From NCBI GenBank assembly GCA_963841565.1, contig CAWJCY010000006.1, positions 320,001-384,000 on the forward strand: 64,000 bases of DNA, in the 5' to 3' direction. The translations under genes and the position numbers were made by a program. The notes beneath the pieces are model-generated. The model did no database searches and was not told the DNA's origin. It was given only the letters and a program-made list of their open reading frames with translations. Source of the DNA: an uncultured Nitrososphaerales archaeon. GTDB taxonomy: Archaea > Thermoproteota > Nitrososphaeria > Nitrososphaerales > Nitrososphaeraceae. The stretch's first letter is position 1; each line of letters opens with the position of its first letter. This document shows positions 11,586 through 15,215 of this stretch, piece by piece.

Positions 11586-11699
11586 TGCGGGAGGTGGGAT
11601 TTGAACCCACGGACCCCTTAGGGATGAGGTCTCCCGCCGCATGGATCTGAGCATCGTGCCAACGGTCTCACGCCTTTGGCCATGCTTGGCAACTCCCGC
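11586..11699 (-). tRNA. tRNA-Leu(CAG) with two predicted introns
   Basis: GCGGGAG/CTCCCGC acceptor stem, discriminator A, GTGGG-TTCAAAT-CCCAC T arm, long variable arm; removing about 14 nt and 15 nt gives a TGAGG/CCTCA stem around CTCAG and an 85-nt tRNA. Confidence 0.88.
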
Positions 11700-12270
11700 A
11701 TTTGCTTCTCAATTGAATAAACTGAGATTTATATCCTGGCAATCCGATTCCTGATTCCAGAGATTATTCGATTCCAATAGGATCGATGGTTAGGCACGCA
11801 GCTTTAGGTCTAGAATTGCTCAATTGGAGTAGAATTAAGTAAAGGATTTTCCTCTACTCTGCTGATGTTATTATGCTTAGGATAACGATCGAAAGTATGA
11901 GTCACTGTATCTGATTAGATCATAAGGAGGGAAACATCATATAGTATAATTAATCATGTCAGCATAAGGATTAAGCAATTAGTGTAAATATACCTCTTTC
12001 CAAGATCTAATTTTCCTCAAAGTTCATTGCGGAATCAGCGATTGGAGGGCAGCGATTATAACTTGACTCACCATTGTAGAAACTCGACAATTTTAGAGTT
12101 TTCTTTTGAAGTAATATCTACAAAAAAAATGTGAAAGGACAATTTGCATGTAACCTGGAATTTATATAATGCCAAAGCATTTCTTTGAACCCAGCATAGG
12201 AACATTCGCGCCTTTAGCCTCCAGAACGAATTCAGGAACAAACTTAAATTCAATTGCTGACATTATTCTC

Positions 12271-12946
12271 ATGTTGTACGAACATGAAGATATCCAGATT
12301 TCATGGACCGGCCATGATGGGTTTAAGATAAAAGGAACAAACAGCCAGAATAACCAATTGACGGTCTATGTCGATCCCTACCAACTACCCTCCAAGTATC
12401 AGAATCAGAATGACGCAGATGTAGTTTTACTGACCCATGATCATTTCGATCATTTAAGCATCGATGATCTGAAGCAAATTATTAACAACAACACAAGTAT
12501 AATATCAGCCACCGAGTGTGTTAATAAATTAGCTGGACTGAAATTGAAAGAGATTAGTGGAATTAAGCCAGGCGAAAAAACTACTGTTAAGGGTCTCGCA
12601 ATCGAAGCAGTTCCTGCATATAATACTAATAAAAAATTTCATCCCAAGTCTGATGGAAAGGTAGGATTCGTTTTAATAATGAACGAAAAGAGGATCTATC
12701 ATGCTGGTGACACAGATTTGATCCCAGAAATGGAATCTGTGGATCCAGATATTGCACTTGTTCCTGTCTCAGGTACTTATGTAATGAATGCGGAAGAAGT
12801 CTGCAAATGCTGTCAACAAACTAATTCGCCCCAAGAAAGTCGTAATTCCTATGCATTACAATGCTATTGTCGGCACTGAGGAAGACGCTAAGAAATTCAA
12901 AAATCTTGTTAATGTTTGCAAAGTGGAAATTCTTTCCAAAGATTGA
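12271..12946 (+). CDS. MBL-fold metallo-hydrolase (one apparent 1-nt insertion near 12800)
   Basis: WTGHDGF, VDPY, THDHFDH, IYHAGDTD; removing one T restores VVIPMHY and a stop at 12946. Confidence 0.9.
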
Positions 12947-13028
12947 AGAGGTTCAATCATAAATCTGGCACCCTAAGTAGACTGTTTTAAAAAACTTATA
13001 TATTATCAATTATTTCATATGAATGAAG

Positions 13029-13100
13029 ATGGCTGCTAAGAAAAAGGCAAAATCTGCAAAGAAAGGAGAGAAAAAATCAACCCGATCCTCAAAGAAGTGA
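13029..13100 (+). CDS. Small Lys-rich basic peptide MAAKKKAKSAKKGEKKSTRSSKK
   Basis: ATG..TGA 24 codons; TATA-like CTTATATATT about 25-35 nt upstream; T-rich tract downstream; below ORF-track cutoff. Confidence 0.65.
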   Translation: MAAKKKAKSAKKGEKKSTRSSKK

Positions 13101-13732
13101 TCATTTTATAGTTATCTGATCACAGCGGTTCTATGAGGTCGCTAAAGAAACTCTCTTATTCTTTTTGTATGATTTCATTGCAATTGATCCCTTTATGTTG
13201 AGTTCTTGTCTCAGTGAGAGGGTCTTGACATATTTCATTAAATTTGATTATTCCAATTATTGTTTAGAAAATGAGTTTATCCGATGATATTCTGTGGCCA
13301 TTTTATTCTTCAAATAGATCTTTCCTATTTCGAGGTTGTTGGTTTTGAAAAAGAAGTGGAAAGAGTCTTCAGGAATTGATTGCAACATACTGGACCAGCC
13401 TAGCTGCTTTATCTTTGTCGCGAATTCGACATACTTGATTGTTATTCTGGAACTTCAAATATTTTTAAGCAGCATCCCAAATGAATATTGATGATTGCGA
13501 CCTTTACAAGCGTATGAAACCCAACAAGAACTTCACATTTGAAGTGAAATTCTGCGTCGTAGTCTGACTGCCATTTTAGTTTTCAGATAGCAACAGGATA
13601 AAAGGTCTAGAGAATTCCTAATTTAAACAGTGATAGCCGAATTCTGTGCCAATGAAGTAGATATTAATACTTCATAGATCTAAAAGGGGAAACAGTAAAT
13701 ATAAAAAGCTCGAATGTATCGTAAAGGAACGA

Positions 13733-13856
13733 GCAGATGTGGCAGAGTGGTCTTCTCTAAATGAGAACAAAATAATGCGTCGGCCTTGAGTGAATCAAGT
13801 TAGAAGATAGCCGATTCGCCTTCGGGCGATCAGGAGTTCGAATCTCCTCATCTGCG
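13733..13856 (+). tRNA. tRNA-Ser(UGA) with two predicted introns (D-loop and 37/38)
   Basis: GCAGATG/CATCTGC acceptor, discriminator G, TCGGC-CTTGAG[18 nt]A-GCCGA anticodon arm, TCGCCTTCGGGCGA variable arm, AGGAG-TTCGAAT-CTCCT T arm; about 21-nt D-loop insert. Confidence 0.9.
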
Positions 13857-13864
13857 CCCTTTTC

Positions 13865-14968
13865 CTAAAATTCCTCCTTTCTAATGGTTCCTCGGCGGTG
13901 TTTCTTTGGCAGCTTTGAGCTGTGTGCTGATTTTATCCTTCTTTCCAACTTCGAGACTATTTCCTTCGATGCCGAAATTGGATCGTATGCCACTGCCTTC
14001 GCATCTACAATGCTGTTGTTTGTCATTATTCTTGCTCTAATGGAGTATTTCCTTGTCTTGTGCTTGTCTACGTAAATAGTGACCAATTGAATATTTTCTA
14101 ATCTTCCTTCAATCTTTTTCAGGAATTTTGTCATATTTCTTTCGATTTCATTTTTGTCATCCTCACTTTCAGGATCTGAAATGTGTATAAGGGTAGGACC
14201 TCCATACTTTGGAAGTAATAATTCGAGTGCATCTTTTGGTGTAACCACACCTATTGGACGTTTATTTCCTACTACAACAACTTCTTCATGATCCTTTAAG
14301 TCGCCAGTTAACTCATTTATTTTTGATCCTTGTTCCACAGAGTAAGCATTTCTCATCATATCCTTCACTTTTACGTCTCGTACTACAGCCATTGTACCTA
14401 CTCCAGGAGACTTACTCGCCCTCTCTCTGGGTTTGGATATGACGTGTGCAATATCCAAAACATTTACGATTCCTGTCAAAACACCATCCCTGTTGATAAC
14501 GGGTAAACGTGATATGTTGTACCTCCTCATTTTTGAAAGAGCGTTCCCAAGGGTATCGTCGCCCTCTTGTACTATAGCACCACTCATAATTGAATCCACT
14601 GTTGAATGACCAAACCTAGCGTTCACTACTATGTCCATCTCACTGACTATTCCTACAAGTTTGGAACTATCCTCAACGACTGGAAACGCGCGATTTCCTG
14701 TTCTTAGTATCATCTCAGTAGCTCGCTCTACCGTGACCTCACGACTTAGAGTCGGGGTTTTTGATATGAAACTCTTAAGCTTAGATCCAGGTAAGACATT
14801 AACTGAAAGAAATTCCTTTGCGAAAACCATTCCCAAATAGTCGCTGGTATCGTTCACAATAGGAATCTGGTTTAATCTGTGTGAATGCATTAGATTAAGT
14901 GCCTTTGAAACAGTATCTTCAAGGGTTAAGGAAATTACATCCTTTATCATAATGTCGCCTACTTTCAT
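13865..14968 (-). CDS. Four CBS domains fused to a C-terminal HPF/RaiA-like domain (putative ribosome hibernation factor)
   Basis: CBS repeats (QIPIVN..YLGMV, AFPVVE..LVGIVS, RLPVIN..LTGIVN, RPIGVVT); C-terminal YSIRARI..AKAVAYD..SKEIVSKLERRIK HPF-like pattern. Confidence 0.85.
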   Translation of the reverse strand: MKVGDIMIKDVISLTLEDTVSKALNLMHSHRLNQIPIVNDTSDYLGMVFAKEFLSVNVLPGSKLKSFISKTPTLSREVTVERATEMILRTGNRAFPVVEDSSKLVGIVSEMDIVVNARFGHSTVDSIMSGAIVQEGDDTLGNALSKMRRYNISRLPVINRDGVLTGIVNVLDIAHVISKPRERASKSPGVGTMAVVRDVKVKDMMRNAYSVEQGSKINELTGDLKDHEEVVVVGNKRPIGVVTPKDALELLLPKYGGPTLIHISDPESEDDKNEIERNMTKFLKKIEGRLENIQLVTIYVDKHKTRKYSIRARIMTNNSIVDAKAVAYDPISASKEIVSKLERRIKSAHSSKLPKKHRRGTIRKEEF

Positions 14969-15032
14969 TGTGTTTTATGATGATCCTAATCATTACATTA
15001 AAAACCTTCCTCTACTTATAACAAACGATCAG

Positions 15033-15215
15033 ATGGATAATAGACGCCTTATCATAATTGCTGCCATAATAATAATACTTATTAGCGTAGTCACAATATA
15101 TCTGGCCCCTTCCGACACGATTATCCCTCTTCCCAATCCTAATGAAAATAGCACACGCAACGATAACAACATTAGCACACCTTCACAAGGCGGTCTCAGT
15201 CAACAGTCTCCATAA
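15033..15215 (+). CDS. Small single-TM membrane protein
   Basis: MDNRRLIIIAAIIIILISVVTIYLAP followed by a polar Asn/Ser/Pro tail. Confidence 0.6.
   Translation: MDNRRLIIIAAIIIILISVVTIYLAPSDTIIPLPNPNENSTRNDNNISTPSQGGLSQQSP

Follow-up and report, generated by a model that had tools for sequence, protein, structure and literature searches.

Archaeal ribosome hibernation factors that join a tetrad of CBS domains to a domain resembling bacterial HPF/RaiA were described twice in 2026. HibA was described in P. abyssi and T. barophilus (Madru et al., Nat Commun 2026; PMC13324472), in a text that cites PDB entry 9SR9 and that gives a layout of four CBS domains (residues 1-269) followed by an HPF/RaiA-like domain (residues 270-392). 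The C-terminal domain is reported to bind the 30S subunit and the CBS module to bind the 50S subunit in three conformations, with a loop of residues 190-207 inserted into the peptidyl-transferase centre (PTC). According to the same account, inhibition of in vitro translation by HibA depends on the C-terminal domain, and T. barophilus cells deleted for the gene contain ~60% fewer 70S ribosomes in stationary phase and show a longer lag and delayed regrowth (PMC13324472). AHA of Haloferax volcanii (HVO_2384) is an independent description of the same family (Souza et al., EMBO J 2026; PMC13728122), and there its HPF domain is reported to occupy the bacterial HPF site and 'loop 3' of its third CBS motif to enter the PTC. 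One of the nine HPF-domain queries named in that study is a Nitrososphaera viennensis protein, A0A977ICN8, which means that the occurrence of the family in Nitrososphaeraceae has already been published. A related architecture is seen in Dri of Thermoproteota and SriA-D/ARC of Methanosarcina, which are described as CBS-tetrad-only hibernation factors that lack the HPF domain. Dri is reported to carry a long loop at the same site, between CBS3 and CBS4 (PMC13324472), but to sit on the 50S subunit in the opposite orientation (PMC13728122).

The gene examined here lies in a 64,000-nucleotide stretch of DNA (the window) from a soil ammonia-oxidising archaeon of the Nitrososphaeraceae, and very probably encodes a ribosome hibernation factor of the HibA/AHA type. 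Its product is an uncharacterised orthologue in the family published in 2026; the system is already known, and no new kind of system is represented. The original prediction, made from the DNA letters, had placed an open reading frame of this architecture at the site, and the ORF list and translation bear this out: the frame is intact at exactly the predicted coordinates, opens with ATG, encodes 367 residues plus a stop codon and contains every peptide that had been quoted (Table 1). This ORF is far from a chance reading frame. A database search returned 465 homologous proteins at E <= 0.001, and each of the 120 listed matches at E <= 4.3e-121. An alignment of 40 sequences, which was the source for both the full-length structural model and the conservation counts given below, retains 61 invariant columns at identities down to 53%. 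The putative promoter element upstream of the gene is an A/T-rich octamer with a purine-rich stretch before it, both identified by eye.

Table 1. Features of the CBS-HPF gene and its putative promoter, in window coordinates.
Feature	Position	Strand	Basis
Complete HibA/AHA-family CDS, CBS tetrad + HPF/RaiA-like domain (family very probable)	13865..14968	(-)	ORF list, translation, 9sr9_H alignment
N-terminal CBS tetrad, residues 1-254, two Bateman pairs	14207..14968	(-)	PF00571, Foldseek
CBS3-CBS4 long loop, residues 181-198 (~HibA 'PTC loop', AHA 'loop 3')	14375..14428	(-)	alignment
HPF/RaiA-like C-terminal domain, residues 258-350	13919..14197	(-)	domain model, fold searches
Basic C-terminal tail, residues 351-367	13868..13918	(-)	composition, pLDDT
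Putative TATA-like box, ~30 nt upstream of start codon	14997..15004	(-)	inspection of sequence only

Assignment to the HibA/AHA family is anchored by alignment to a solved protein over nearly its whole length. A phmmer search of PDB sequences places chain 9sr9_H first (E 2.3e-21), in a single alignment of residues 14-347 with residues 17-370 that includes the C-terminal domain, and a profile search extends the match to residues 2-353 against 5-385 (E 4.7e-46). This chain of 392 residues was deposited under the name 'Dehydrogenase' in eight entries (9sr9-9srf and 9t7h). A second chain with the CBS-HPF fusion, 9l96_a, is matched by the profile at E 3.7e-37; a literature search for PDB code 9L96 found no paper, and the AHA structure, given as 12DM in the cited text (PMC13728122), was not among the structure-search matches. 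The likeness to HibA is thus one of CBS tetrad plus HPF-like domain in end-to-end alignment, and AHA has the same fusion. The homology to P. abyssi HibA is nonetheless distant, as the phmmer E-value indicates, and at 367 residues the window protein falls 25 short of the 392 in HibA. The hosts differ as well, a mesophilic soil ammonia oxidiser here and hyperthermophiles for HibA, and the window protein is known from its sequence. The statement in the original prediction that a similar archaeal CBS-HPF family had recently been reported, and that the protein might not be wholly new, proved accurate, as HibA (PMC13324472) and AHA (PMC13728122), both of 2026, are that family. Our search for literature on a factor of this type in ammonia oxidisers found incidental mentions and the AHA paper alone. 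Database names are uneven: many JGI homologues are labelled 'CBS domain-containing protein/ribosome-associated translation inhibitor RaiA', and NCBI records read only 'CBS domain-containing protein'.

The C-terminal domain shares its fold with HPF proteins and is distantly homologous to them, though by sequence it is not counted among the PF02482 members. [quoted passage not shown] Foldseek searches with this model returned solely CBS-tetrad matches, and because they were silent on the C-terminus, residues 255-367 were modelled alone, on an alignment of 19 sequences (pLDDT 84.4, pTM 0.70). The fold search that had been proposed for the last ~100 residues against HPF/S30AE was positive with both programs used. 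In VIA-align comparisons with 48,161 representative chains, each of the best 16 rows is either an HPF/RaiA/pY/MPY/RafH-type chain or comes from a hibernating-ribosome entry (Z 13.5-9.8), led by 5x8r_y (Z 13.5, rmsd 2.2 over 96 residues) and including E. coli HPF (4v8h_AX; Z 11.7, rmsd 2.6 over 95). The first different fold below them is the dsRBD of Dicer-like proteins, from Z 8.4 downward. Among the listed Foldseek rows, ranks 1-39 are likewise HPF/RaiA/YfiA/pY or hibernating-ribosome chains, another fold first appears at rank 40, and the best match is V. cholerae HPF (4hei_A; E 5.6e-6, TM 0.80 normalised to target, rmsd 2.3). Chain identities within the ribosome entries matched by Foldseek were read from entry titles, and sequence identity in the structural alignments with HPF-type chains is 11-21%. 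In fold and topology, residues 258-350 thus resemble bacterial HPF/RaiA (YfiA, pY) and plastid PSRP1 (PF02482); the 30S binding site is presumed, by homology with HibA/AHA, to be that of bacterial HPF. The domain differs from its bacterial counterparts in being fused to a CBS tetrad, neither standing alone nor followed by the C-terminal dimerisation domain found in long HPF.

Sequence profiles place the domain less decisively. The Ribosomal_S30AE model PF02482 scores 19.8 bits over residues 283-349 of the whole protein, 22.3 bits against the domain alone and 22.1 bits in a six-frame search of the genome, in each case under the cut-off of 23.7. The HPF part of the original prediction therefore stands on fold, profile matches and homology to solved HibA. 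Since the profile built from the 19-sequence alignment (357 positions) took in CBS columns, a further profile was built from nine C-terminal-only sequences, all of them short. Searched against PDB sequences, it ranks E. coli HPF first (4v8h_AX, E 0.008), followed by P. abyssi HibA (E 0.031) and a second E. coli HPF chain (2rql, E 0.2), and four of its nine members match PF02482 at E <= 1 (best E 3.4e-7). The sequence links of the C-terminal domain alone to solved structures are weak (E 0.008 to HPF, 0.031 to HibA). A phmmer search with residues 255-367 against 1.84 billion representatives, a method too insensitive for this purpose, returned 21 proteins at E <= 0.001, no bacterial HPF among them. 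Conservation of the HPF core is pronounced, with Y299, D301, H303, T305, K307, Y308, S309, R311, R313, A323, K324, A325 and D329 invariant across the 40 aligned sequences. Beyond the fold, the basic tail that had been noted at the C-terminus is apparent from composition, with eight K/R against two D/E in the last 22 residues (346-367), and residues 352-364 have pLDDT <50 in the full-length model.

The N-terminal two thirds of the protein contain the two CBS pairs originally proposed, recognised as four PF00571 stretches (E 3.2e-34; 117.5 bits against a cut-off of 24) and as four CBS units in the model. NCBIfam models gave partial CBS-type matches only, far under their cut-offs. The best Foldseek match of the full-length model is 9znf_4, a CBS chain in a Methanosarcina ribosome entry with SriA/SriB (E 3.1e-20), and AMP-bound 3ddj (E 1.4e-18), MJ1225, ribosome-bound Dri (9e7f_3, E 1.4e-16; also 9e6q_3) and many AMPK-gamma chains (E ~1e-15, TM ~0.55 normalised to query) are matched as well. 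The tetrad is thus structurally close to those of Dri and Sri, but membership of that group was rejected because the window protein has an HPF-like domain. It is similar also to eukaryotic AMPK gamma, from which it differs in having no kinase partner and in its fusion to a predicted ribosome-binding domain.

Among the best-conserved parts of the protein is the loop that connects CBS3 with CBS4 (residues 181-198). It matches the PTC loop of P. abyssi HibA in length, in a gapless alignment, and in the 40 sequences P180, R183 and K186 of this region are invariant and E182, S187 and G191 nearly so. Residues 182-194 fall below pLDDT 50 and are predicted to be disordered in the full-length model, as would be expected if the loop orders only on the ribosome.

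The ribose-phosphate site of CBS domains is formed by the motif G-h-h-[S/T]-x-x-D. In the window protein the CBS4 copy is canonical and invariant, with T243 and D246 present in 40/40 sequences, and the CBS2 copy is near-canonical, with S109 in 33/40 and D112 in 40/40; the CBS3 copy is partial (N169, D172) and that of CBS1 is degenerate. This pattern of conservation fits binding of adenine nucleotides without proving it.

An alternative reading of the gene concerns the role of the tetrad as an energy sensor. A protein of this family could bind ribosomes through a CBS tetrad that is merely a structural module for docking on the 50S subunit, with adenylate playing no part in regulating engagement, and we regard this as a genuine possibility of somewhat less than even probability. 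The degenerate CBS1 and partial CBS3 motifs point in that direction, as do the P. abyssi data, in which the native HibA complexes are reported with no nucleotide seen and the three ribosome-bound conformations were much the same with 5 mM AMP or ATP added (PMC13324472). This lack of effect weakens the 'sensor' part of the original prediction. Against a purely structural role stand the reported affinities of the P. abyssi CBS module for AMP, ADP and ATP (Kd 12, 65 and 113 uM, respectively), with no binding of GTP or GMP (PMC13324472), and the two AMP molecules described on ribosome-bound AHA, which lie between CBS3 and CBS4 in sites corresponding to AMPK-gamma sites 3 and 4 (PMC13728122). The strict retention of T243, D246 and D112 is also hard to explain without a ligand. 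Adenylate sensing by the window protein is plausible, and the narrower proposal that nucleotide binding gates its engagement of the ribosome is tenable, if a little short of an even chance.

The possibility that the CBS tetrad regulates some other target, as in an HhpR-like transcription factor, with a generic dsRBD- or gp25-like module for RNA or DNA binding at the C-terminus, appears very improbable. What speaks for it is a weak match to the NCBIfam model HhpR (NF053603), but this reaches 49.7 bits against a cut-off of 520, tenfold under it, and covers residues 1-115 only, and an HhpR-type identity was rejected on these grounds. The C-terminal side of the argument draws on dsRBD folds at Z 8.4 and below and on the gp25 model PF04965, which scores 23.2 bits over residues 251-318 of the whole protein and 21.1 bits against the domain alone (cut-off 27.2) and is precomputed on five of the 120 listed homologues. 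No gp25 chain was among the fold-search rows listed for Foldseek or VIA-align, an absence that does not exclude that family; the sub-threshold match was taken as chance or fold-level resemblance, and gp25 identity was set aside. HPF-type chains fill the VIA-align top 16 and the listed Foldseek ranks 1-39 before any other fold, and the whole protein, C-terminal domain included, aligns to solved HibA. That the gene is a decaying or non-functional copy can be dismissed with near certainty: one related genome within the genus lacks it and a second carries it split, but the frame is intact here, the invariant columns include HPF-core and PTC-loop residues, and the gene is intact in 11 of the 13 other genomes of the genus. 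A ribosome hibernation factor of the HibA/AHA type is the reading carried forward below.

The host assembly comprises 2.05 Mb in 13 contigs and is 88% complete. It encodes an archaeal amoA (PF12942, E 1.4e-118), and the close homologues of the window protein are in records whose titles read Nitrososphaeraceae or Nitrososphaerales archaeon, those at 52-58% identity being from Nitrososphaera sp. and Ca. Nitrosopolaris; the premise that the host is an ammonia oxidiser therefore holds. Within this 88% complete assembly we found neither a standalone HPF nor a second CBS tetrad, the sole PF02482 signal being the window gene itself. The other matches to the window protein in the host genome are a CBS-pair ORF of 161 residues and a CBS stretch inside an ORF of 482 residues.

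The distribution of the gene was surveyed in 40 other genomes, including 13 of the same genus and 11 from other genera of the family. In the same genus it is intact in 11 genomes (one of them, G013, unpublished), split at residues 123/124 in G001 and without a full-length match in G010, a genome ~97% complete in which the best of the matches listed has E 2.5e-5. The gene may thus be dispensable in some relatives, or those two assemblies may be faulty. Among the 11 genomes of other genera, seven carry the window type and two a divergent type, and two have no full-length match among those listed. Gene absences are tentative throughout, as they were read among the matches listed and ten further matches lie outside these. 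Two divergent subtypes of the factor occur in Nitrososphaerales. Separately, 17 sets of RNA reads (soil, rhizosphere and mangrove) share 0.06-0.19 of the sampled words with the sequence, values that are no evidence of transcription or habitat.

The gene neighbourhood offers less insight into function. Upstream on the same strand lie a zinc-ribbon ORF, rpS6e and eIF2gamma (identified with Pfam), followed by the window gene after a 377-nt gap before its start codon. The same block, running from zinc ribbon through S6e and eIF2gamma to HibA, is present at each of the three loci from the genus that have long flanks (L029, L030 and L031), and eIF2gamma adjoins the gene in eight of nine short same-genus loci, the ninth (L008) having too little upstream flank to judge. 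Outside the genus, the block recurs in one other genus (genome G015, locus L017) and is absent from the loci of the five further genera compared within the family (L012-L016), although the upstream flank of L012 is just 630 nt. The proximity to eIF2gamma and rps6e in the original prediction is therefore real, but as a hint of function it fails in the five further genera. Because the block is limited to this genus and one other, the adjacency is best viewed as a lineage-specific rearrangement and weak evidence for function, and a functional link to eIF2gamma or S6e was rejected.

A more widespread neighbour is represented in the window by an ORF of 87 codons at 14952-15215, which is homologous to the divergent upstream neighbour of the gene in those five other genera. 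A divergent neighbour of this type is found in 57 of the 79 genome contig loci whose upstream sequence spans 300 nt or more. Outside the genus of the window, the homologue of the 87-codon ORF is mostly the membrane-anchor N-terminus of a long protein, and in one locus (L084) that long neighbour is a GSDH-family dehydrogenase (PF07995, E 5.1e-90).

[quoted passage not shown] The N-terminal tetrad would dock on the 50S subunit, with its conserved CBS3-CBS4 loop probably entering the PTC. With one domain on each subunit, a single polypeptide would clamp the empty 70S ribosome, blocking translation and protecting the ribosome during starvation. What sequence and models show directly is the architecture, the fold, the relatedness to ribosome-bound proteins of solved structure and the retention of residues in the PTC loop and HPF core; that the window protein binds ribosomes, inhibits translation and holds adenine nucleotides in its CBS sites is inferred from its characterised relatives. 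The most far-reaching version of this proposal holds that the protein is the sole HPF- or CBS-tetrad-type factor of its host and that AMP or ATP at CBS2 and CBS4 gates ribosome engagement, so that ammonia starvation is coupled to ribosome storage. As a whole this combination is unlikely, though not negligible. If true, it would constitute a regulatory link beyond that demonstrated for HibA in P. abyssi or AHA in Hfx. volcanii.

The comparison with HibA and AHA settles the annotation of a gene so far named 'CBS domain-containing protein'. It also indicates that the archaeal hibernation factor described in 2026 is carried by ammonia oxidisers of terrestrial habitats, where the supply of substrate makes their activity in soil come in pulses, and that it is apparently the sole factor of its kind in them. 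The HibA/AHA protein is thereby a concrete candidate for the preservation of ribosomes under ammonia starvation.

The flanks of the HibA gene, which encodes the window protein (a CBS tetrad followed by a C-terminal HPF-like domain), carry RNA genes, small reading frames and an apparently frameshifted gene. An intron-containing tRNA-Leu(AAG) gene and the HibA gene converge, with about 10 nt between the end of the tRNA gene and the HibA stop codon. This tRNA was called by neither ARAGORN run without its intron option nor Rfam at the gathering score; in E-value mode, Rfam gives a partial match of 20.3 bits at 13793-13848. The farther tRNA match, found by Rfam above its cut-off and not called by ARAGORN with or without the intron option, is probably also an intron-containing tRNA.

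Features near the HibA gene (positions in the window)
Feature	Position	Strand	Evidence or remark
tRNA match, 114 nt	11586-11699	-	Rfam, 34.2 bits, cut-off 29
Metallo-beta-lactamase-fold gene	12169-12946	+	PF13483, E 2.2e-24
Lysine-rich ORF, 25 codons	13023-13100		inside the ORF-poor stretch
C/D-box snoRNA-like match	13083-13127	-	sub-threshold, 17.4 bits
C/D-box snoRNA-like match	13092-13164	+	sub-threshold, 23.7 bits vs 43, E 0.13
tRNA-Leu(AAG) gene, 38-nt intron	about 13733-13858	+	ARAGORN with intron option
ORF, 87 codons	14952-15215	+	one predicted membrane helix; divergent from the HibA gene

The metallo-beta-lactamase-fold gene appears to be frameshifted near the 3' end: the alignment of relatives to its 236-aa ORF stops at about residue 223, and an overlapping ORF in another frame (12788-12946) seems to continue the protein. 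Beyond it, the roughly 770 bp at 12960-13730 yielded no ORF of at least 60 aa, and nothing else was found there than weak, sub-threshold C/D-box snoRNA-like matches and one 25-codon ORF.

Upstream of the HibA gene, the small membrane ORF overlaps the first 17 nt of the HibA coding sequence. No Pfam match was obtained for this ORF. In 57 of 79 loci, a homologue of it is the immediate upstream neighbour of the HibA orthologue. Outside the window's genus, the homologue in most of these loci is the anchoring N-terminus of a long protein; at one locus (L084) this long protein belongs to the GSDH family of dehydrogenases (PF07995, E 5.1e-90). Within the window's genus the anchor part alone is left, and the ORF is therefore either a rearrangement relic or a small membrane protein that has been kept.

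The HibA orthologue itself was not found intact throughout the genus. In G001 (C11:32813-33914) it occupies two adjacent frames, with the break at residues 123/124, and in G010, a same-genus genome about 97% complete, no full-length match to the window protein was found among the matches listed (best E 2.5e-5). Gene loss or assembly error could account for either state.

Beside the window-type orthologues, those close to the window protein, the order Nitrososphaerales contains a second, deeply divergent CBS-tetrad and HPF-like subtype. It was found at ten loci (L019-L028; genomes G035, G032, G040, G028, G024, G038, G026, G036, G017 and G039), with members in Ca. Nitrosocaldus sp., Ca. Nitrosotenuis cloacae/sp., a Nitrososphaeraceae archaeon and a Thaumarchaeota archaeon. 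Full-length matches in the search of 41 genomes place it at 21-27% identity to the window protein, and among the matches listed no genome of the 41 holds both subtypes. The conserved signature of the C-terminal domain differs between the two. A C-terminal profile built from 9 of the 10 divergent proteins (L022, not caught by the motif pattern, was left out) aligns with the window-type C-terminal profile over 99 columns (hhalign probability 93.8%, E 1.7e-7), and it also matches S. aureus HPF structures (6qbz_A, E 0.002). PF02482 (Ribosomal_S30AE, HPF/RaiA) is weak in this subtype, with hits in two of nine proteins scanned with Pfam (E 0.014 and 0.0026). The HibA paper (PMC13324472) describes the Nitrosopumilaceae as having no identifiable factors, a statement on which the divergent subtype may bear.
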